Shown here piece after piece: positions 32,825 to 57,439 of a stretch of DNA of 64,000 nt; the first letter of the stretch is position 1, and every line of letters starts with the position of its first letter. The translations under genes and the position numbers were made by a program. This DNA is from Eledone cirrhosa (Eukaryota), in assembly GCA_964016885.1 (NCBI GenBank), contig OZ024742.1:211234001-211298000 (forward strand), in the 5' to 3' direction. The notes below the pieces were generated by a model, which was not told where the DNA came from, made no database searches, and saw nothing but the letters and a program-made list of their open reading frames with translations.

Positions 32825-35492
32825 TCGCAGACTACACCAGCCTCATGAGCCAATAAAAAAATAACATTGTCAATCTTCGCAACTAATGGTAATATGTTTA
32901 TTGTTCTTTTTGACTGAAGTGAAGTAAACCTTTATATATAAACTAAATCGGCCATTCTTGTTATTTCATCTAATAACCATGTTAATCCCATCTAACAATT
33001 TCTTACAATACCCTTCGTTAAACTACTACCATTGACTGCAACCACCAACAAACATTGTCTGGTCACTCGCTGCTTTCACATCAACAACAAAATAACATCG
33101 TCAACCTTTGCGACGACTCGTGGTAACTTATTTGTTGTTCTTTTTGACTGAAGTGGAGTAAATTTTATATCAAAAGTAAACCAGCTATTCGTGTTATTTC
33201 TTCTGACGATAACTACTAACTTTGCTTCGCTTCAATTGGTGACCCGACATTAGAACACAACTTTCTGAGCCAAGGATAATCACGCAACAATATGGAACAA
33301 TCGCCAGCATCATCGTCTGTACAAGCAGCAATATCCCTGCGGATACCGACATTATGGCCTCATGATCCTACCATTTGGTTCAGATTCATCGAGGCACAAT
33401 TTGAGACGCACCATATTTCGGCAGACAGGACTAAAATGTCCCATGTTGTCGGGGCGCTTCCTCCGGGATTTGCTTACAGCACCATCAGGCACATAATCTT
33501 ATGCCACATTTAGGTCCGAGCTTATAAAGCGGACATCCGTCTCACAGCAGCAACGGATTAATCAGCTGCTTTATTCAGAGGAGTTAGGCGACAAGAAACC
33601 GTCACAGTTGCTAAGACGCCTAAAGCAACTATTGGGAGAAAACACCATGGAGCCGGCCATCTTAAAACAGCTGTTCTTACAAAGGCTGCCACCAGCCACT
33701 CGCAGTATTTTGGCGGCCAGTGAAATATCCACCTCAATCGAGGAGCTGGCGGATTCAGCCGATAGGATCATGGAGGTGGCAGCACCATTGTCACTCGTGA
33801 CCCAGGACACACACACACACATCCCATAGTGAGCTCTTTTTCTTCCCCTCTTTCTTCCTCATTTTCTAATTCTTCTCCTTCTTCGTCTTCTGTTTTGGAA
33901 GTGGCGGCGCTCGAGGCTCGGGTGGAAGAACAGGCTGAGCAACTAAACGCTCTTATGGCTAAACTGTAGCTACAACCACGCAGCAACGCCAGCTCAACTC
34001 GACGCGCCTCCCATCAGCTCCCGCGAGACCCGAGTCGTACCCGGGCGACCGATCCGATGTGCTATTACCACCGTAAATTCGGCGAAAGGGCCCGTAAATG
34101 CCCATTACCCTGTTCTTTTTGGAGATGTTTCCGTTATGTGCCGGGAAACGTCGTGGCCAGGCAGTAACGGCGGCAACTACACCTGGCTCTTCCAAACCTA
34201 GCCGCTTGTTCCACATTAGCAACCGATCAACCGGTGTTCGTTTCTGATGGACACCGGAGCTGAGGTTAGCGTTATACCATCATCTCTGGTGCCAGGCAGT
34301 AGGAAACCCACAACAGTTCTTCTCAAGGCGGTAAACCATTCTGCTATACCCACATGTGTAGAAAAGTCCTTAACCCTTGATCTTGGGCTCCGCCGAGTTT
34401 TCCTGTGGGTTTTTGTCATTGCCAAGTTGCCGACTCCGATCTTAGGAGCGGATTTCTTACACCATTTCGGTCTCCTGGTGGACGTTAAACACAACAGACT
34501 GATTGATTCCACCACGGACTCCAATGTTCGCGGCATCAGCACTAAGGCACCCTCTCTCAGCCCAGTTTTTTTTAACCCGGTGCAGTCCGGCAGATACGAC
34601 GCTATCTTACGCAGGCACCCTGACGTCTCGCGCCCGATTTTTAACAGTCGCCCGGTGACCCCCAGCGTTACGCATCATATCGTGACTGAAGGCCCTCCGG
34701 TATCTTCTAAACCACGGCGACTCGCTCCTGACCGCGCTAAGATCGCTAAAGCAGAGTTCGATCATATGCTGGAACTGGGCATTGTTCGTCCATCCAGTAG
34801 CAGTTGGTTTTCCCCCTTCACATGGTTCCCAAGAAATCTGTGGGCGACTGGCGACCGTGTGGGGACTATCGGTTTCTTAACACACGAACAAAACCCGATA
34901 AGTATCCGGTGCCTCACATACAGGATTTCTCTGCTACCCTCCCCGGAGCTAGGGTCTTTTCAAAAATCGACCTCGTGCAGGCGTACAACCAGATTCCTAT
35001 TGAACCTTACGACATTCCGAAAACGGCCATTACAACTCCTTTCGGCCTCTTCGAGTTTCTTAGAATGCCATTTGGTTTACGCAATGCTGCATCGACCTTC
35101 CAGCGTTTCATGACACAGTAGTACGTGGTTTATCCTGTGTCTATGCGTATATTGACGATATGCTGGTAGCCAGCACATCCCATGAGGAACACGAAAGGCG
35201 TTCACATCAACAACAAAATAACATCGTCAACCTTTGCGACTCGTGGTAACTTATTTGTTGTTCTTTTTGACTGAAGTGGAGTAAATTTTATATCAAAAGT
35301 AAACCAGCTATTCGTGTTATTTCTTCTAACGATAACTACTAACTTTGCTCCGCTTCAATTGGTGACCCGACATTAGAACACAGCTTTCTGAGCCAACGAT
35401 AACTACTAACTTTGCTTCGCTTCAATTGGTGACCCGACATTAGAACACAGCTTTCTGAGCCAACGATAACTACTAACTTTGCTTCGCTTCAA
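30585..35492 (+). mobile_element. Gypsy LTR retrotransposon E (CsRn1-like): gag, protease and truncated RT
   Basis: 5' LTR 30585-33235, interrupted by element A; PBS tggtgacccgac at 33237; gag (LWPHDPTIWFRFIEAQF, LKQLFLQRLP); protease MDTGAEVS; [10 protein letters not shown]...MPFGLRNA...YIDD at about 35148; then the LTR 3' part resumes at 35201. Confidence 0.88.
30768..33022 (+). mobile_element. Non-autonomous LTR element A, inserted in the 5' LTR of E
   Basis: LTRs 30768-31331 and 32387-33022; tRNA-Trp-type PBS tggtgaacccgacgtgat at 31333; TSD ctac; ~1.05-kb non-coding interior. Confidence 0.9.
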
Positions 35493-35909
35493 GCTGAGGC
35501 TAAACAGCAACAAACAGGAGTTAACAAGCTTATACAAAGGACGCTCGCTATGGTAGAATTTTCAGCCAGCTGTTGAAATCACACGAAACAGTCTTACTTT
35601 ATAAAGGAAAAAACAAATAAATATCAGTCAATGTAGTAAAGAACAACAAATAAATAAAAAAATTCCATTATCTGAGCTTTTCATAAAGCTTAATGGATAA
35701 TCTCAGGGACTAGAACAGTTTTCAGGTTCTACTGCATTTCTATTCTGTCTGCAGAATACTTTCCTTGGGTATTTCTCCCGCAGCCGTATTGTTGATATTC
35801 ATAATCAACATCAATACATAAAAAAATAATGAAATTATTGCGTACAGTGCTCAGGTGCACTACAACTCATCAAAGGTGCATGTATAGTACATAGAATAAT
35901 GTACAAATG

Positions 35910-41934
<6,025 letters not shown>

Positions 41935-43540: not shown

Positions 43541-44601
43541 TATATTGATAAAAGGAAAAGAAAATGCTGACAAATTGTTCCCAGTGAAAAATAGTTTAAT
43601 TAGGAATAAGTAAAAATGAGTAATAAGTATTGGTAAGCATTCAGTTTTAGTTTTAAGTTTTTACCGGTTGCGCATTTCTAATGCTTTTCAAAAATAATTT
43701 TGAGATAGAGCACCCGTGATGTTTGCTCTAATCTGATTAGTTTTGGAAATTCTACCTGTTTAATGCGAAAAAAGTGGCTCCAGATGTATTAAAATAAGTT
43801 TCGCGCCAATTCGTGTTGCAAAAATTCTTGTGGTCAAAACAATTTTGATTGGTCGGTAGAGGTCATGTGAATGTTAAAAATTGATATTGCGCCAAATGTA
43901 GGTTTGTCTCGGCTGATTGAGAAGTCACTGAAAAATAAGTCTTTTAAGACAAATATGTGTGTGTGTGTGTGTGTGTGTGTAGTAGTAGTAAAGAGGTTCA
44001 TTGTTGTGATAATGGTCAGTAGGGATGTGTGTGTGAATTGCAGTCATGTTGACAGGTCAACAGTTCAGGCGCCTATTAAGACAAGTGTGTGTGCGTGTGT
44101 GTAGCAGAGTAATTCGTGGTAGAGGGATCGGTCAGTATGAATGTGTCTGTACGTGTGTGGGGGATATTTTAACATGTTAAAAGATATTTTTCAGCTCTTG
44201 TCTTATACGGTGAAGTGTGTGTGTGTGTATGTCTCTTTGTATGTTAGTGTACGCGTGTGTATGTATATATGTGTGTGTGTGGGTGGACCAGTATTTTTGT
44301 GATACTGGTAAAAATGGTGTACATTATTCGTGTGTACGATATTTTCAGTAAAAACGATTCTCTCAAGAGAACATCAAAAACCTTAATAATAAAAGGTGTG
44401 AAATGATATATAGTATTGTCATAACACCAAGGTGTGTGTGAGTGTCCAGATTGTACGTACTGCAAGGGGAATCCATACAATACTATATATCATTTCACAC
44501 CTTTTATTATTAAGGTTTTTGATGTTCTATTGAGAGAATCGTTTTTACTGAAAATATCGAATAATGTACACCATTTTTACCAGTATCACAAAAATACTGG
44601 T

Positions 44602-44643
<42 letters not shown>

Positions 44644-45339
44644 TAACATACAAAGAGACATATACACACACACACACTTCTCCGTATAAGACAAGAGCTG
44701 AAAAATATCTTTTAACATGTTAAAATATCCCCCACACACGTACAGACACATTCATACTGACCGATCCCTCTACCACGAATTACTCTGCTACACACACACA
44801 CACACACACTTGTCTTAATAGGCACCTGGACTGTTGACCTGTCAACATGACTGCAATTCACACACACATCCCTACTGACCATTATCACAACAATGAACCT
44901 CTTTACTACTACTACACACACACACACACACATATTTGTCTTAAAAGATTTATTTTTCAGTGACTTCTCAATCAGCCGAGACAAACCTACATTTGGCGCA
45001 ATATCAATTTTTAACATTCACATGACCTCTACCGACCAATCAAAATTGTTTTGACCACAAGAATTTTTGCAACACGAATTGGCGCGAAACTTATTTTAAT
45101 ACATCTGGAGCCACTTTTTTCACATAAAACAGGTAGAATTTCCAAAACTAATCAGATTAGAGCAAACATCACGGGCGCTCTATCTCAAAATTATTTTTGA
45201 AAAGCATTAGAAATGCGCAACCGGTAAAACTTAAAACCAAAACTGAATACTAACCAATACTTATTACTCATTTTTACTTATTCCTAATTAAACTATTTTT
45301 CACTGGGAACAATTTGTCAGCATTTTCTTTTCCTTTTAC

Positions 45340-46735: not shown

Positions 46736-47343
46736 GGAGCAATTATAGAGGCATAAAGCAGATGGATCAGGTTATGAAAGTAGCGGAGAGAATATTAGCG
46801 CAACTGATTAGAGAAAGAGTCAAATTAGGTGAGATACAGTTTGGTTTTGTGACTAGGAAAAGTACAACAGATGCCCTCTTCTTAGTGAGACAACTACAAG
46901 AGAGGATCTTAGAGAAGAATAAGCCACTATACTTAGCTTTTGTTGACCTAGAGAACGCCTTTGATAGCCTACTCCGATCTGTCATCTGGTGGTCCGTAAG
47001 TGTTGTGTACGGATTCCCAAGTAAGAACAAGTGTAAAGACGGTAGGAAGTTGTATTAAACAACGTAAGTATAACTGTACACAGGATGGCACGGAGCCGCA
47101 AGCAAAGCACGATGTATAGAGTATAGTGTCACATCCACATGCCCGTGCGCACACGTTGAGTCCAAGGTCTTATTGGACGGGCGAGCCAATCAATATGAAG
47201 ACTGTGTGTGATTGGCCGATGAGTGGCCAATAAGTGGCTGGAACGTGTTACGTGTAATGAAAGAAAGGGAATAAATACGGATAGGCGAGAATATGAGAGA
47301 AGCATTAATGTATACACAACATTTTCTCCCCTCTTTTTAAAGC

Positions 47344-50300
47344 TGTAGTGACCTACATTCCGCGGGCTCACATACATTCTATGTGCGTGATTTGGCTCAG
47401 CCAATCAGCGCCAGTAGAAGAGAATGTATCCCTACGCGCCCTGAGGGAGAAATTCCCTGCGAGGATTTGAAGGATCTATAGCGGGGATACTGGGTTGCAT
47501 GAACGTAACAAGGAATTCATTGTTTGTTTGTATAATATTTAATTAACAATGGTAGATAGTATAGTTGACATGTCAAAGATGAGGATGATAGAATGAAGCA
47601 AAGTTAGTAGTTACCGTTTTGATTGCCAGGCAAACGCGGCTGGCAGAGGACGCCTGGCTAAGGCCAGGCGCCTGTTGGCCAAATGAATGGCAGAGCCAAA
47701 TGAGAGGCTCTTGACCTGGTGCCGAAAAGGCAATGAGAGAATGAGAGCTTAAAGTTGTTAGTTTTATAGGGCTCTGACCGGAAGTTACAGAAAGGGCCCC
47801 ACTTCCCGTCCAGACGTTAATCCAAACAAGGGAGACAACCGCTACATAACCTCCCGCCAGAATTTTAGTGTATAAAAATCGAAATGAAAATATGTAGCAA
47901 GTTGGCGAGAATGTTGTAACAGGCATGAAAATTACGACAAAAGAATGTTTGCAAAAATCAATGATAGATATCAAGGTAGCCAACCGCTCTTGGCCAGAGA
48001 ACGACTGGACATCCATCCATCCATCACCCAAAGATACAATGTAATAAAGTAAGAGAAGACCTCAAAGTTCAAATGTACAAAATATAGTTCACAGGTGTGC
48101 AATCACATGACAGCAGGAAAGAAAGTGTGTTCCAGAGAATGAATGCAGGTGGTTTCTGTTCTGTGGTATATCGTGAAATTTCCAACCTCCGAATGGATTT
48201 TCTCACAGGGAGAGTGCTGCAAAAATAAATTCTCTGGCTTTGGTTGTTGGTGAAGCTGTGTTGATGTATTGCTGCTGTTGTCTCGCTGAGTGAGCGTATT
48301 CGGTGTTTAAATTCACAGTAAAAAAAAAAAAATTTTTTTCTTTTTCTTTAGAAAAAATGAGTTGCGCCATGTGCTAGAAATAGCAGCCGAATTTGATGGT
48401 CGATGTTGAGAATGCGTTGACCTGGAAGGGTCAAGAGGCCAGCGACCAGAGAAATAAGCATTCTTAATAAATGCGCGGTTATCAACGGTAAATTTACATT
48501 GTAAATTTATAAACCGGCAAATAGAAGAATATAGCTTAAGGCTGAAGAATCCTTGGCGAGAAATGTTATCTCTGGCGTGCGGCTATGTCTGTGAGTAGAG
48601 ACATCTCTGTGAATCGAGAATTTGTGCTGCCTACACGTGCCAATACAAGGTTGAAAAAAATAATATTTCTAACGCGCGAGAAAATGATAGTGCAATTTTG
48701 AAAGTGACAATGATGAAAAAGAAAGGCTTCACTCAGCATAATTATTGGTGTGAACTTTGGGAAAAAAAAAACTTGAACGATGAAGAAAACGATAAACAAA
48801 AAGGCAATGGTTCATCGAAAATAAATGTTCCTGTTGAAATGTTTTTTTAAAGAATATCGAATTTCTTTTTTTCCCTTTTTTTTTGTTTTGAAAGAGTTCG
48901 CTGTAAGACACGAGAAACATATATATATATCGTGAAATGTTTTTTTTTTTTTTGTTTTGAAAGGGTTCGTTGTAAGAAACGAGAAACATATATATATATT
49001 GGTGAAATGCGACAGTTAGTTGATGCGTGAGAGAAAAAGTCTGTCTGTGCGAATTCCACATGTGCGTGTGTGCGTGTCCTAGAGTATTTTCATAGTTTGT
49101 CGATAAATTTGCTGTGTATTCGTAATGTTACTCACACAAAACCAGATGTGGTATTTTTTTTTTTTTGGGGGGGGGGGGGTGACCACTTATAGCGATGAAC
49201 GGCTGCGTGTTCGTATCACGTCAGGGTTACCAATATAGCGGGGATACTGGGTTGCATGAATGTAACAAGGAATACATTGTTTGTTTGTATAATATTTAAT
49301 TAACAATGGTAGATAGTATAGTTGACATGTCAAAGATGAGGATGATAGAATGAAGCAAAGTTAGTAGTTACCGTTTTGATTGCCAGGCAAACGCGGCTGG
49401 CAGAGGACGCCTGGCTAAGGCCAGGCGCCTGTTGGCCAAATGAATGGCAGAGCCAAATGAGAGGCTCTTGACCTGGTGCCGAAAAGACAATGAGAGAATG
49501 AGAGCTTAAAGTTGTTAGTTTTATAGGGCTCTGACCGGAAGTTACAGAAAGGGCCCCACTTCCCGTCCAGACGTTAATCCAAACAAGGGAGACAACCGCT
49601 ACAGATCTCTCTCTCGCATCCTGAACTTCGAAGTTTACAATATGTAAAGGTGAGATTTGCACTTTGGCCCGCCGGCCTGCCTCGAGCCTGGTACAATGAA
49701 ACATTACTTTGTGCTACAACAAAATAAACATACATTTCATCTCACGAACATTCTTCTTGTTGGCGTTATTATCATGTTACTCGTTATCGATATGACTAAC
49801 ATATACTTCTACCAAACTGATTACTCGTGGCGCTTCTAACTATAACACAACAACCAGCTAAATTGGTGACCTGACGTGAGGAATATTTTAAATACAAAAT
49901 ATTCCTTTTAAAATTAAAAAAATTAGCAGTGTTTCAAAAACTTTTCGCCACGAGGAAATTTCAAAATGGTTACCACCAAGTACTTCTCTACTACCAGCCA
50001 TCAGCAGCAACTGACGCAGCATAGTGACACCTTTGTATTTAAACCGCCGCCAATACTGCCACAGCTTCGACACGGCTACAATAACAACTTCGGCACCATC
50101 AACAGCAGCGCCTACGACAACATTGTTGAAAGAAAAAAAATTAGCTGTATTTTCAAAATTATAGCCCGGAGACATTTTTTTTTTCTTTCAATACGGCTTT
50201 CTGCAATACAAACAAGCAAAACACCAAACTCACGTGGTGACTCTCAGCTTTTCGGCGTGCGACTTCGATTCTACAGAAGATTTACTGTGACTTTGCTTTG

Positions 50301-51511
50301 ATAACAACAACTCTGCTAGCTTCCTAGTAAGAGCGATCACAAAGACATTTTAAGGAAAAGAAAAAGCGAACTTTTTGTTAAAAAAACAATTCTTTCTTTC
50401 TTTCTTTCTCTTTTTACAGGCAATGTTCGGACATTTATTCTTTTAAAACTGTATTATACGAAAATTCATTTTCTTTATCATTGTATATATAACTGCATCA
50501 TTTTTTTTTTTACCATTGTATATATGACTGCACCCACACATTCTTTGCTGTAATACATGCCAGCATATGCACACATATTTCTTTGACACACACCAACATG
50601 TTGTTGTCGTTAGCATAACAACCTCCATCTTGTTACTTTACCCAACTCACTGGGAAAACAACAAATGGAACTGGACCTGTCAGCATTTCCACCATTTCCC
50701 CTACAGATTCAACTTACTTTTTTCTCTTCAAAGCAACCAGCCATTTTTTCCTGGCTGCCTAGCACTTTCGGCAATTCATCTGGGAGGCCGACATTTTCTC
50801 GCCTACCCACCATCTTCTTGCCAGCTTTGCTACACTTACCATAACAGCTATACAGCTCTGGTAAAGCATGAACAGCACCATCATTGACAACAGCTACTGG
50901 TAAACTACCATAACAGCTTCATCCACAGCTACTGGTACAACACTTACCATTAACATTTAATGCAAGAACAGCAACTTCGCCCATGTCAGACTTTATCCGT
51001 TTTCCTATGATCACGTATAAATATCAAAACAGCTAGTCATTTGCCACAGCAGCTCAACACGGCCCTTAGCGCCTCATTTTTCTTCTTGCGTGCATTCTTC
51101 TGTTCAATTATTTTTTCATTGATGTGCTCATTCAGCATTTTTCCTGCTGAATCAATAATCTGTATCGTCTTGCGACTAGGAAGGTGGTATTGTAGTGACA
51201 TACATTCCGCGGGCTCACATACATTCTCTGTGCGTGATTTGGCTCAACCAATCAGCGCCAGTAGAAGAGAATGTATCCCTACACGCCCTGAGAGAGAAAT
51301 TCCCTGCGAAGATTTGAATCTGTCTCTCGCATCCTGAACTTCGAAGGAACGACACGTACAATATGTAACGGTGAGATTTTCACTTTGGCCTGCCGGCCTG
51401 CCTCGAGCCTGGTACAATGGCACATTCCTTTTGTAATCCTTTTATGTTTAACTACAATCATACAAATTAACAAACATTACTTTCTCACTACATCTAAATA
51501 ACTCTGCTAAA
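47344..51511 (+). mobile_element. Non-autonomous LTR element B nested just inside the 3' LTR of the maelstrom element
   Basis: LTR copies start at 47344 (split by C, ends about 49862) and 51191; PBS tggtgacctgacgtga at about 49864; purine tract aggaaggtgg before 51191; non-coding interior; the 3' end is uncertain and I found no TSD. Confidence 0.75.
47477..49603 (-). mobile_element. Non-autonomous LTR element C inserted in the LTR of B
   Basis: Near-identical 370-bp LTRs at 47477-47846 and 49234-49603; TSD gatc; tRNA-Trp PBS at 49201-49232; PPT-like ggcgggagg next to 47847. Confidence 0.9.
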
Positions 51512-51793
51512 CGGTGATTAATAAAACTGCTACAATCCAACATGTTTGTCACACACCACATCAATTCTTGTTATGACCCGGCTAAAAAAAAAAAAAAAAA
51601 ATAATAATAATAATAATAATAAGATCTGGTGTTGTGTGTATATGGAAAAAAAATAATTAATTAGCAGTGCCCCATTTTCGTTGGAATGTGTCGACCAACG
51701 TACTACTCTCTTTTACATGCACATTGATCGACTTTCAGAGATTTCGTCTTTTTGCTATAAGATGCTTGGTATCTAGACAATTTTGCTTTAGCC

Positions 51794-51950
51794 TCAATAT
51801 CCGACGACTGAGCTTAATTTAGTGCGCAAGGGTCGACCTAAGAACAGTTCAGCCGGTGCTACTTCGGTCGCACTGTGGAGCGTCGATCGTAGTGTCTGCA
51901 GCGCCTTCGATACTGCGTCATCCCATGTCAGACCGTGAAGTTGTAGTGTT
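51794..51950 (-). pseudogene. Gypsy integrase C-terminal remnant, in frame with the maelstrom tail
   Basis: TWDDAVSKALQTLRSTLHSATEVAPAELFLGRPLRTKL matches the Gypsy integrase motif YRxTPHxxTGxSPAELLxGRxxRTxL. Confidence 0.8.
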
Positions 51951-53558
51951 TGAAATGTTGTGTCTGGTGGATTTTGGAAAACGGTTTCAAAGTGGAATGG
52001 ATTCTGCAGAACTTCGTTTTCTTCACATATACGATTTATTTCACTATCACACTCGCTTAAACTATTACATACATTAGCGTCATGACTACAACAATCAGAT
52101 TCGTTTTCAGATTTCGTTCCCAATGGAACGTCTACATTACTATCCAAATAACTGTGTTTTGCCGACGCAAAAGCAACGTCAGCGCTGGTAAGTGGTTTGC
52201 GGGGAGCTTCCAATTCATCATTTGAAGAATGAAAATTCGGTTGAACGTTAGAAGAGTTTTGTGTCGTGTTTTCAGACCAACGTTTGTTTCTTTGGGCAGC
52301 TGAGCGAGAGTTATTTTTTCTATTGCCGAAATGGGGAGGGTTTAACGATACGCCTTTACTTTTACTATCTTTCACGGGGCGGTGCTGAGGTGTGAGTGTT
52401 AATTCATAACATTGACGAGAGAATCTGACATGGCGTAAGCGTATCTTCGAATAATAGCTAAGCTACAATGAATAAGACTAGCCTGTTTGTGCCCAGGACA
52501 ACGAGTATTGGGTTCATAATCAAATGCAGTGGTTGTCAGCATGTCAAGAATTTGATATTTCGCTACTGGAAAGCCGCTATGTTTAAACAAATCCATGACG
52601 AGCTTTCTCAAGTGCATAAAGTTGAATATATTCCGATCTAGTATTTTCACTTCGTACTCAAAACCAATTCAAGCAGCTTTCATCCTCTTTGAAATCTTTC
52701 GACAAACAATAAAATTGTTTATTACGAGAAAATTTAAGCAAATTTTTCCACAGTTGAGTATAATCAGATGTGGCCATTTCAAAATTTTCTATGGGAATTT
52801 GGTGAGTGTTGTCACTGTGGAATTGCGCCTCATATCTGAAACCAACGGGAATTGGACCCGCGTTAATAAATTGGTGCATCTCTATACTAACACCTTCCTT
52901 CATATTGTATTCCAACATAGAAATTTCAACTGGTAAGCATTCGTCGTCTGAAGTCTTACAAAGTATCTGGAAATTCAGTAAGTAAAACTTTTCATATAAT
53001 ATATCAGTATTATGCGGCCATTTTGAGATAATATCTCGGTCTTGTTCAGCGTATTGTTTAGCAATTTCGTCGAGGGGTTCACAATGGTGAGAAATCAACT
53101 GCCCTGTACAATCCATACGCGAATCCTTTTTCTTATTGTTGGTGTTGTTATTCTTTTTACGTGAATTTTCTTTAACTTCACGAGACATTTTTTCATAAGG
53201 GTACTTTTCGTTTGCCGTCAGCAGCTTCCATTTGGAGCCAGCTAAAGTCACAACATCTGCTAAACCATGAGGGAAATTATGGCCATTAAGTTTCATCTCT
53301 TCCATTAAATCTTTCATATAATAATTGTTTCTACTTTTGGCACAAGGCCAGCAATTATCCCAGTGTATTACTGGTACTTTATTTTATCGACCCCGTAAGG
53401 ATGAAAGGCAAAGTTAACCTCGGCAGGATTTGAACTCAGATCATAAAGGGCCGTAACTCTTTGCTCCAAAGCATGGCATCCGACCCTCTACCGATACTGC
53501 CAATCCACCGCCCTTTCATATAATAATAAAAAGCTTTATGTATTTTATTTGGAGGCAT
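51950..53558 (-). pseudogene. mael: Intronless maelstrom-like CDS (HMG box + MAEL domain), disrupted by a SINE and two 1-bp indels
   Basis: MPPNKIHKAFYYYMKD...AGSKWKLLTANEKYPYEKM (HMG box); LPVEISMLEYNMKEG...HQFINAGPIPVGFRYEAQFHSDNTHQIP, DYEPNTRCPGH...HCSLAIIRRYAY and YELTLTPQHRP (MAEL domain, E-H-H-C-H-C residues present). Confidence 0.88.
53326..53512 (-). mobile_element. tRNA-derived SINE inserted near codon 15 of the maelstrom copy
   Basis: 15-bp TSD ctttcatataataat at 53311-53325 and 53513-53527; same family as 12858-13045. Confidence 0.92.
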
Positions 53559-53587
53559 GTTTAACGGTGTAGAGTTACAAACGTTCT

Positions 53588-54730
53588 CTAGCTTAGGCGA
53601 GATTCTAAGTGGGCCATGGCGTTACCACCTAACAACGGTTTACATTGCCCTGGGTCATAAACTGCAATCTTACAAGCGGAATTTATTTCTACCTGAATGT
53701 TGGTGAAGAAAAATCCGCGAATGCCGACAAAGTCATCAGAATAGCTCAAGAACTTGTAGGCGGTATGAAGTAAAGGCGACTGTCTGAAGTGTGACTGATA
53801 AAAGGTTTTGGCGACTATGGTAATTGGAGATGCTGAATCGAGCTCCACCAATAATATGTCATTTTTACCATCAGCCGACAGACTAACATGCCAACAATCA
53901 GCTTAAGAAGCTTAGGCTCATGATCATTCTCGGCAGTAAGCTGACTGATGATTGAATATATTGTAACATCGTTTTCGGTTTCTATTGCTTCTTCAATACG
54001 GTGAACTGTTTTGCCACGGCAGCACTTGGCAAAATGACCCCTCTTCCCACAGTTCCGACAAATTGAATTTTTGGCGGAGCATTGGGGAAAAGTTGCCTTA
54101 TGACCAGGATTCCCACACCGGAAACATTTGCTGTTGGATTGCATTGAAATTTTACTTTGCTCTAGAGCAACCTTATCAATGTTATGCTGTTCTTCTTGTT
54201 TGAAAGCCTTCACTTGAGACTTAATGCTTTCTTTGCAACGAACTATATTACAGGCTTTGTCGAAAGACAAGGTACGCGAATCCTTGTTTAAAAGCGCCTC
54301 TCGTGTACTATCGCTTTCATTGCTGGAGATTAGTTGCTGTATTAACATAGCGTCTTTAATTTTGAACTTAGACTTTCGTATTCACATTCGGTAACTTTTT
54401 TGCGCAGTTTTAAGATAAAACTATCAGCCGACTCACCGCGGTCCTGCGGAAGGCGACTGAATTGATGCCTCGCGAAGAAAACGTTTTGTGTTGTCCTCCC
54501 ACAGGCGATCGAGTTCGTAAATAGCTGCGTCCACATTCTTGAAATCGTGGCGACCGGCTTCACCAAGATAATGGCGCATTAAGGCATTTGGAGTCGTCTG
54601 TCAGCGCAATGGATGGGTTCAACACCGGAAGCGGGCTGAAGTAGTTGAACAATTCCTTTTTCCAAGATGTCCATTCCTGCGTGGTTGGTCGGGCGAATTC
54701 ACCAACCCAGAAGTAATCCAAGTGGGGTTG
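53588..54730 (-). pseudogene. gag and protease of the Mag-like element, frameshifted
   Basis: RHQFSRLPQDRGESADSFILKLRKKVTECEY; CFRCGNPGH...C and CRNCGKRGHFAKCC; protease VELDSASPITIV...PLLGGN. Confidence 0.85.
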
Positions 54731-57439
54731 ATTCATAGGGATTTTTCAGAAAATGATCCAATTTGTGAAAAAAATAGCAGGTAACCTCGGCGACGCCAAT
54801 TATTGTGTACGGATTCCCAAGTAAAAACAAGTGAGGAAGTTGTATTAAACAACGTAAGTATAACTGTACGCAGGATGGCACGGAGCCGTAAGCAAAGCAC
54901 GATGTACAGAATATAGTGTCACATTCACATGCCCACACGTTGAGTTCAAGGTCTTATTGGACGAATGAGCCAATCAATATGAAGACTGTGTGTGATTGGC
55001 CGATGAGTGGCCAATAAGTGGCTGGAACGTGTTACGCGTAATGAAAGAAAGGGAATACATACGAATAGGCAAGAAGCATTAATGTAGACACAACACTAAG
55101 GAAACTAGGTGTAGAGGAATGGCTTGTGAGGATAGTGCAAGCTATGTACAGAGGTGCTGTCAGTAAAGTGAGAGTAGGAATGGAGTTTAGTGAGGAATTC
55201 CAGATACAAGTAGGAGTACATCAGGGTTCGGTCCTCAGCCCGCTCTTGTTCATTATAGTCCTCCAAGCCATAGCAGAGGAGTTTAAGATGGGCTGTCCAT
55301 GGGAACTTCTCTATGCTGATGATCTGGTTCTTATAGCAGAATGAGTAGAGGAGCTAGAGAATAAATTCTGGCTATGGAAACAGCAGTTGGAATCAAGAGG
55401 ACTGAGAGTGAACATAGCTCAGACAAAAGTGTTGATAAGTAGAAGAGAGGACAAAACTCTGATTCCATCAGGGAAATGGCCATGTTTGATATGTAGAAAA
55501 AGAACTGGCATAAATTCTATAAAATGTACACAATGCAGATCTTGGGTACACAATAGATGTAGTGGGATAGCAGGCAAACTACGTATGCAGCAGATGTACA
55601 GGGAAATTTGACAGTAGTAATCGCATTAATAGACATTTTTTCAAATGCAGGTGGGTTCTATAGAAGTGGTTGATAGCTTCCGGTACCTAGGTGATCAGAT
55701 TAGCTTGGGAGAGTGTGTTCCGAGGCGATAGTATCTAGAATAATGACGGGTTGGAAGAAGTTTAGGGAGCTGCTTCCTGTTGACAAAGAAGGGTTTCTCC
55801 CTGCGTACGAAAGGTTGGTTATATGATACCTGTGTGAGATGCACGATGCTGCATGGTAGTGAGACATGGGCAGCAACTAGAGGATATGCAACAGCTGGAA
55901 AGAAATGAAGCAAGCATGCTCCGTTGGATGTGCAATGTCAATGTGCGTGAACGACCAAGCATAGATAAGTTGAGAGAGAAACTGTGTATAAGAGGCATAA
56001 GTTGTAGTGTGCAGGAGAGAAGACTGAGATGGTATGGACATGTAATGCGCATGGAAGATGACCGCTGGGTAAAGAAGTGCCAAGAAATCCCAGTAGAAGG
56101 AAGACCACGACAAACATGGGCGGAGGTGGTGAGAGACCTCAGATCGCTGAAGCTCACGGAGGAGATAACGAAGGACCGTGACAAGTGGAGAGATGCTGTG
56201 CTGAATAGGACCCGTCCAACTCTTGCAAGCAGGGAAAAGCGGACGTAAAATGATGATACATCTATAGAACAAATGCCTTGTAGTTAAGTAATGCACTCAG
56301 AAAACAAAGCATCTAGTTGACACGACCGTCGGATTCCAAACTCGTAAAAAATACATTTTTAAAAACAAAACCAATCATGAATTAAATGTCTATATTAGAA
56401 CTAAGACATCTCCCATAATCCCTACCTCAGACATCATCCATATATCCCAACCTCTAACCTGCTCTAAATATGAATATGGGAGATGGACATTTTCAAGCTG
56501 CAGCGTCAAATTACGTAGTTTCTGTGTAAGAATAGACATTGAATAATATCCTTTATTACCTGCAGTGACTACAACCCCATTACATAATAGGCCTTGCTCC
56601 ACCTTCACCCATATACCCTTGACATTAAACCCTCAAGATGATGTTGTCACTCATCAGGAGGCCCAGGTTTCAAATAGACATAATATACATACTCAAATGC
56701 AAAACATAATTAAGATTAAACGAATATATAGTAATCACTGCCAACTAATTAGAATGTGCTTTGCCGGTGAGACCTAAGATCGAAACATGTCCATTGCTTA
56801 AACAATTGGCTTTAAAAACTAGATCTACTCCTACCTCTATGGCAATTTAAAAAAAAAAATCCGATTCTCTAACTTAATTGAATGTATCTTTCTGGTTTGA
56901 GTTTTAGATCTTAAAACACACACAAAAGGAATTTTGTCCAGTAATTCCAGTTAATGGAATGTTTTAACTCACTATATTACATATGTAAGATTCTAATTTA
57001 TATTAACTATGTTTCATGGTGCACACTTAGTTTATTATCAATTTTTCAAGGGAACATATATGCATGCAAAACAGAGAATTAACGAAGTCATTAAAATGTC
57101 AGACAGAATGCTTTGCTGTATTCATTCAAGTGCAGAGCCGGAACGACTACAGCAAAGCCTTCTGGTGTGAACTTTACTTTTCAACCATTAGAGGTCAATA
57201 ATAAAAATATCAGACCATTACTGGGTTTCAATTCCTCTTCTATATCTCATCCTGGATGAAATCTACTATTTTCAAACCTGAAGAGGGATGGGTTCTGTGA
57301 GTTTTAAAATACCCAAGTATGTCACAACAGCACTCCTACAATTCCATCAGGAGTTACGGGTCCATACATATATGCATACACACAGATTATTGAAAATTAT
57401 TAATGTTGTAGAATACTCATTAAAAGAACTGACATCTAT

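Follow-up and report, generated by a model that had tools for sequence, protein, structure and literature searches.

How did a copy of maelstrom (mael), a piRNA-pathway gene, come to lie inside a retrotransposon of the mollusc Eledone cirrhosa, and is it working cargo or a relic? The copy lies in a 64,000 nt stretch of contig OZ024742.1 (assembly GCA_964016885.1, forward-strand positions 211,234,001–211,298,000), here called the window and numbered from its first letter. A first-pass annotation of this sequence had described a nearly intact open reading frame (ORF), restored by three repairs, and had suggested selection on the cargo within its transposon family.

The mael copy is enclosed by a Ty3/gypsy-type LTR element, which occupies 47,001–55,095 on the minus strand (Table 1). 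Read along that strand, the element consists of gag with two zinc knuckles, a protease-like region, maelstrom and an integrase tail; mael stands where reverse transcriptase (RT), RNase H and most of the integrase should be. Family copies with the parental arrangement carry the RT, RNase H and integrase domains in the same two-point interval, and the window's integrase-tail peptide is found after the rve core in one of them (L033). The parent family has the order gag-PR-RT-RNase H-integrase, which we take to be a marker of the Ty3/gypsy type, together with LTRs, a primer-binding-site-like stretch and a polypurine tract. It has no env-sized frame: only 433 nt separate the integrase-tail landmark from the 3' LTR in L033. 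The protease-like region, for which no Pfam match was obtained, is presumably a protease by its D-S-A motif and its position before RT. ARAGORN found no tRNA in the 64-kb window.

Table 1. Positions of the parts of the chimeric element and of the breaks in its mael copy (window coordinates).
Feature	Positions	Strand	Basis or remark
Target-site duplication, left copy	46996..47000	.	4/5 letters match 55,096–55,100
3' LTR, Ty3/gypsy-type	47001..47321	-	89–95% to LTRs of family copies; 16 mismatches/295 columns against the 5' LTR
Polypurine tract adjoining the 3' LTR	47322..47338	-	by sequence; L031 and L036 have one at the same place
Other repeats that inserted later (nested), lying between the integrase tail and the 3' LTR; outside the capture	47344..51574	.
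C-terminal integrase sequence of the parent element, continuing the frame of the mael tail	51701..51954	-	78–85% to five family copies
Captured maelstrom: 29 nt leader and host codons 1–468, broken; ATG 53,556–53,558	51958..53587	-	host gene alignment, Pfam
Single-base frameshift near 52,409, host codon 318	52408..52410	-	alignment to host gene
Single-base frameshift near 52,606, host codon 252	52605..52607	-	host alignment; X1 contig with 0 differences, 0 gaps across
Premature stop, host codon 235, upstream of 3/4 zinc ligands	52658..52660	-	host alignment; X1 contig
SINE of a very abundant family, at host codon 13; 15-nt duplication 53,311–53,325 and 53,513–53,527	53326..53512	-
5' junction: 5-nt microhomology common to parent pol and host mael leader	53583..53587	-	chance of at least 5 nt = 0.006
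gag (two zinc knuckles, 53,815–54,381) and protease-like region, frameshifted	53588..54780	-	zf-CCHC; 8 private indels
Primer-binding-site-like stretch, begins TGG directly after the 5' LTR	54781..54798	-	by sequence
5' LTR	54801..55095	-	LTR comparison
Target-site duplication, right copy; LINE-like repeat split by the element	55096..55100	.

Other repeats surround and interrupt the element. The nested insertions include a ~390-nt repeat with many genomic matches, one copy of which is interrupted by a unit of 2.1 kb; this unit has direct repeats of 370 nt at 47,477–47,846 and 49,234–49,603, which are 99% alike. Outside the element, 44,000–44,894 holds a long interrupted inverted repeat (arms of up to 202 nt, 83–99% complementary), and 34,216–40,757 on the plus strand holds what appear by eye, from protease-, RT- and integrase-like frames, to be remnants of one or two more Ty3/gypsy-like elements.

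The one intact mael found in the genome is on C4 (C4:184,539,944–184,541,596; L004:4945–6597), a single-exon frame of 550 aa. In a DNA-level search of the genome with this host gene, the only additional matches are those in the window, on C15 and on C2. Within 30 kb of the C4 gene there is no LTR, gag or pol, simple repeats accounting for all the similarity, and we rejected the idea that it is a further copy of the element family. The closest named protein is the mael of Argonauta hians, with 71% identity over the whole length. Metazoan Maelstrom, in the accessible text of PMC4408791, comprises an HMG box and a MAEL domain with an ECHC zinc site. The C4 protein has both domains in one open frame, as a functional Maelstrom should, and aligning it by sequence to the solved MAEL chains 9NHC, 4YBG and 5AF0 places the zinc ligands at E146, C288, H291 and C299. 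The window copy differs in that its frame is broken, stopping at codon 235, and in that host codons 469–550 are absent.

Vertebrate mael genes have many introns, and the C4 gene has a single coding exon; it may therefore itself be an old retrogene. The mael coding sequence of organism B (run X5) is also one exon, with one unbroken contig over the gene; it differs from the host gene at 122 positions in ~2000 nt, and upstream by 51 differences and 20 gaps in 356 nt. Among the pieces listed for organism B there is no piece of a second mael copy, which carries no evidential weight. The same holds for run X4, a run of a kind not on record, in which one 2003-nt contig matches the host gene without a difference, apart from 33 unaligned letters at its 5' end, and neither the element's gag nor its integrase tail is covered.

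Alignment of the window copy to the C4 gene gives 47 mismatches in 1431 columns (96.7% identity), and Pfam returns Maelstrom (E = 2e-22) and HMG-box matches at 52,658–53,320. The identification as mael thus stands; the near-intactness, on the other hand, is what a 3%-diverged pseudogene looks like. The copy departs from the host frame at four breaks—the SINE, a premature stop and two single-base frameshifts—and additionally has two in-frame 3-nt deletions. Two of the three repairs previously proposed correspond to breaks seen against the host gene, namely the SINE with its duplication and the frameshift near 52,409. The third, a T indel in the run at 52,660–52,663, is in comparison with the host the premature stop, and the other frameshift lies ~55 nt further on, near 52,606. 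The assertion that no other stops occur is contradicted by the in-frame stop, which makes four breaks rather than three, and the frame of about 520 codons is not all mael: the host match ends at 51,958 (codon 468 of 550), the remainder being integrase tail. At codon 13 the copy has gained 202 nt, consisting of the 187-nt SINE and one copy of the duplication. On the 3' side of the SINE, the longest open piece is 219 aa; the window copy is thus predicted to encode at most that piece, without the start of the HMG box and without three of the four zinc ligands.

The retention of signature residues had been offered as a sign of conservation. The ECHC ligand codons are indeed present, but three of them lie beyond the stop, within the frameshifted stretch. 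LPVE, FHSDNTH, HCSL and the RC.H pattern are likewise found; RCPGH as such is not the conserved form, its G occupying a position at which the host and 10/10 orthologues have an aromatic residue. The six-letter signature E-H-H-C-H-C invoked does not appear in the accessible text of PMC4408791, which defines ECHC. In any case, survival of all six signature codons is expected by chance, since its probability is (1 − 34/463)^6, or about 0.63 (calculated by hand).

Substitutions in the window copy show the pattern of unselected decay. Firstly, 12 of the 47 are silent, where neutral simulation with the observed spectrum gives 10.9 ± 2.7, and one stop is seen where 2.3 are expected. Secondly, of the 34 changed codons, 14 fall at positions where the host and three cephalopod orthologues agree, compared with 14.5 for changes blind to conservation; Argonauta matches the host at 21 of the 34 changed residues, the copy at 2, and has another residue or a gap at 11. 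A dN/dS of 0.3 or below is rejected (P = 5e-4), while 0.5 is borderline (P = 0.055). The three available clocks, i.e., the divergence of the cargo from the host (3.3%), the LTR pair (2.7% for each LTR; Table 1) and private changes in the window's gag-PR (42/1190), agree on about 3% per lineage. One comparison counts against the neutral reading: ~1430 nt of cargo contain 2 frameshifting indels, as opposed to 0–7 in ~1200 nt of the gag-PR copies, which is slightly few (P about 0.13, calculated by hand). The suggestion of selection on the cargo is thus not borne out, and the divergence from host mael fits neutrality, the very outcome that the first-pass annotation had named as telling against it. 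Four lesions and a set of changes consistent with decay in the absence of selection together make the copy most probably a fossil, not a working counter-defence.

Two further insertions carry mael. The C15 copy has a 5' capture junction identical to that of the window, has private breaks of its own, and is cut off near codon 140. The C2 insert (C2:99,075,1xx–99,075,491; L037:5105–5492) measures 387 nt, of which 350 nt are mael codons 253–367; it also holds 28 nt of the family's LTR end, inverted, and 14 unassigned bases. Its boundaries are TG...CA and a perfect duplication of 5 nt, as if it had integrated via a cryptic end inside mael. No small break is common to the window and C15 (131 codons) or to the window and C2 (115 codons). 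Letters that two copies share against the host occur at 2 positions (C15) and 1 position (C2), compared with 17 private changes in the window, 11 in C15 and 13 in C2 (the C2 alignment and codon counts being those of a realignment with stricter gap costs). The earlier proposal that the frame was intact at insertion fares well here, no disabling mutation of this kind being shared. Since neither C15 nor C2 shares a small break with the window, the cargo was probably open when it moved, and each copy then decayed.

Both the window and the C15 copy have a SINE at codon 13 (C15:34,763,876–34,764,032). A single shared insertion at this site is nonetheless the less likely explanation, including one followed by conversion. 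A comparison of the SINEs over 155 columns shows 20 differences, which exceeds the 7.3% seen in gag-PR (P = 0.009); their 5' ends and duplication lengths are unlike; and a variant present in the C15 SINE, matched exactly 27,037 times in the genome, is absent from the window SINE. For the C15 SINE itself, the genome search yielded no close relative (best match 86% over nearly the full length; its 28-mer is unique). Across the 1405 coding bases captured, ATTATTAT occurs at the insertion site and nowhere else, and the site resembles the SINE tail. For these reasons—divergence beyond that of the flanks, the subfamily variant, the unlike ends and duplications, and a tail-like target—the SINEs were probably inserted separately, in parallel, and likely belong to different subfamilies.

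The element family is small and old. A genome search with gag-PR gave 11 matches, nine of them long (the window and C15 among these) and two of them short fragments; with 12 LTR-end matches, the family amounts to about ten to twelve insertions. Near-identical young copies are absent among these, gag-PR pairs differing by 4.9–9.9%. Mael is carried by 2 of the 9 long gag-PR matches and by the C2 insert, i.e., by about a quarter of the family insertions found. Five of the seven copies with sequence across the 5' junction are parental there; the capture is not fixed in the family. In the gag-PR tree, which is star-like and gives no order of copying, C15 groups with C1a (98/98) and the window does not pair with C15. 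Several family copies—L032 (C1:435,405,5xx–435,407,4xx), L030 and L035—contain inverted LTR pieces, possibly the products of autointegration. L032 breaks off before the capture junction, at a distance of 13 nt, and its grouping with C15 (98/98; 9 shared columns) makes it a possible further descendant of the chimera, the fourth.

The window element is very likely an instance of LTR-mediated retroposition, a known process. As described in the accessible part of Tan et al. (2016, PMC5131818), which counts maize Bs1 among the retrocopies, it involves replacement of internal ORFs, microsimilarity at the junctions and secondary copies with one switch point. The window element has its internal ORFs replaced by partial mael sequence, both LTRs and a 4/5 target-site duplication; the C15 copy has the same 5' switch point, and the C2 insert adds a third site. 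Loss-of-function changes in older copies are a further likeness (14/21 in PMC5131818). The retrocopies in that text come from flies, mosquito, zebrafish, chicken and mammals, whereas the present case is molluscan; it also differs in that the cargo is a piRNA-pathway gene and the pol frame is kept at both ends.

On this evidence we consider it very likely that the broken mael, which takes the place of RT, of RNase H and of the bulk of integrase in the element, was captured by template switching, that it was likely re-mobilised non-autonomously to at least three sites, and that it decayed neutrally. Several points weigh on the other side: the lack of introns in the host gene, the features of the 3' junction described below, the retention of the pol frame at both ends, the slightly low number of frameshifts, the placing of C15 with C1a and not with the window in the gag-PR tree, and the sizeable proportion of mael-bearing insertions in so small a family. 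The proposed sequence of events is as follows: (i) germline mael mRNA would have been packaged together with the element's RNA in its particle; (ii) two template switches between the co-packaged RNAs would have occurred during reverse transcription; (iii) the resulting gag-protease-Mael-integrase-tail frame would have been open at capture; (iv) intact relatives would have mobilised the chimera in trans, as a non-autonomous element; and (v) each inserted copy would then have decayed neutrally.

Alternatives to template-switch capture with neutral decay concern, in turn, the breaks, the route of capture and the use made of the cargo. Were the breaks assembly errors, as had been suggested for the homopolymer indels, the copy would in truth be open. 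The breaks were checked against contigs of sequencing runs, not raw reads, and runs X1–X3 may derive from the sample behind the window assembly. X1 contigs reproduce the stop (52,612–52,730, 0 differences) and the 52,606 break (52,505–52,641, 0 differences, 0 gaps) letter for letter, which refutes the error reading for both; nor can a homopolymer error account for a 187-nt SINE with a target duplication. At 52,409, a window-type contig is listed in 0/3 runs of X1's sample, which leaves the suggestion some room there; the contigs listed carry host-type letters, including at six neighbouring substitutions. Overall, the probability that assembly errors explain the breaks is negligible. As to the route, repair of a DNA break could have copied an intronless host gene into a resident element without going through RNA. 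Because the host coding sequence lacks introns, their loss cannot serve as proof of an RNA intermediate, and the 3' junction, which has no clear microhomology, shows a cluster of about five mismatches to the host within the final 20 nt of mael (51,958–51,980). The captured piece, however, is in sense orientation, starts 29 nt upstream of the ATG, immediately inside a candidate splice acceptor, and brings no host flanking DNA with it; internal ORFs are replaced, the pattern reported for template switching in the accessible text of PMC5131818. We regard capture at the DNA level as very unlikely. Highly improbable is the reading in which the element kept Mael, or a truncated Mael released by protease, as an anti-silencing protein. 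It would fit the preservation of the pol frame at both junctions (a 1-in-9 chance event, odds by hand), by which one open chimeric frame was likely at capture, as well as the lack of a common small break and the slight shortage of frameshifts. Neutral-like substitutions and the rejection of a low dN/dS contradict it, and all three element-borne copies (3/3) are broken or truncated; for the period after integration this reading is refuted. The only 3 shared changes in 246 codons leave almost no lineage time in which selection could have left marks. Moreover, we found no retroelement domain in 16 of 150 listed mael relatives (of 774 matches), picked for length or late match start, and no mael fused to retroelement proteins among proteins of 964–2750 aa, the latter being weak evidence.

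Counter-defence could alternatively act through RNA, with the insert yielding antisense piRNAs that would cut host mael mRNA; this route needs no open frame. There is precedent in the telomeric retrotransposon TART of Drosophila. According to the accessible portions of PMC7785250 and PMC13534243, sequences of nxf2, aub and piwi were captured on repeated occasions, and the captures go along with antisense piRNAs, a raised copy number and accelerated evolution on the host side. Both cases involve a retroelement holding high-identity sequence of a host gene needed for retroelement silencing, and here the piRNA-pathway source is matched above 90% (96.7%). Perfect matches to the host extend over 629 of the 1382 26-nt windows of the cargo, and the share of mael-bearing insertions in the family can be cited in the same sense. 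A comparable idea, processed pseudogenes as possible antisense piRNA sources in marmoset (accessible text of PMC4105748), likewise relies on a dead copy similar enough to pair with its parent's mRNA; that the window locus is transcribed or acts as a piRNA cluster is hypothetical. TART, however, is a non-LTR element with captured fragments of 140–235 bp and a raised copy number, while the window holds 1.43 kb in an LTR element with few, decayed copies. TART hosts, on the same sources, evolve faster at the captured genes, whereas host mael shows no sign of acceleration or escape: at most 3 host-side changes are found in 246 codons, against 17, 11 and 13 private ones in the copies. Neither family amplification nor fixation of the capture is observed. 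Taken together, these points make RNA-level counter-defence quite unlikely. We also deem quite unlikely a scenario in which a mollusc LTR element took nearly all of mael in frame as a counter-defence, first produced a tail-less, protease-released Mael that disturbed silencing during a brief burst of copying, and now serves as a source of antisense piRNAs against the one host gene.

Read as template-switch capture followed by neutral decay, the window element offers a clean mollusc example of a gene captured by an LTR element and then re-mobilised. It also suggests an encounter of mael mRNA with the family's RNA in germ cells. Among the literature listings searched there is no report of a transposon-captured mael. 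Were counter-defence true, this would be the first anti-silencing capture of a piRNA gene by an LTR element, and the first outside Drosophila, in the literature found in this way; if antisense piRNAs from the copy were shown, TART-type counter-defence would extend to LTR elements and to molluscs. More generally, this case adds to the question of what leads transposons to take up piRNA genes, selection or opportunity; opportunity fits here, the capture having decayed without spread and without host escape.
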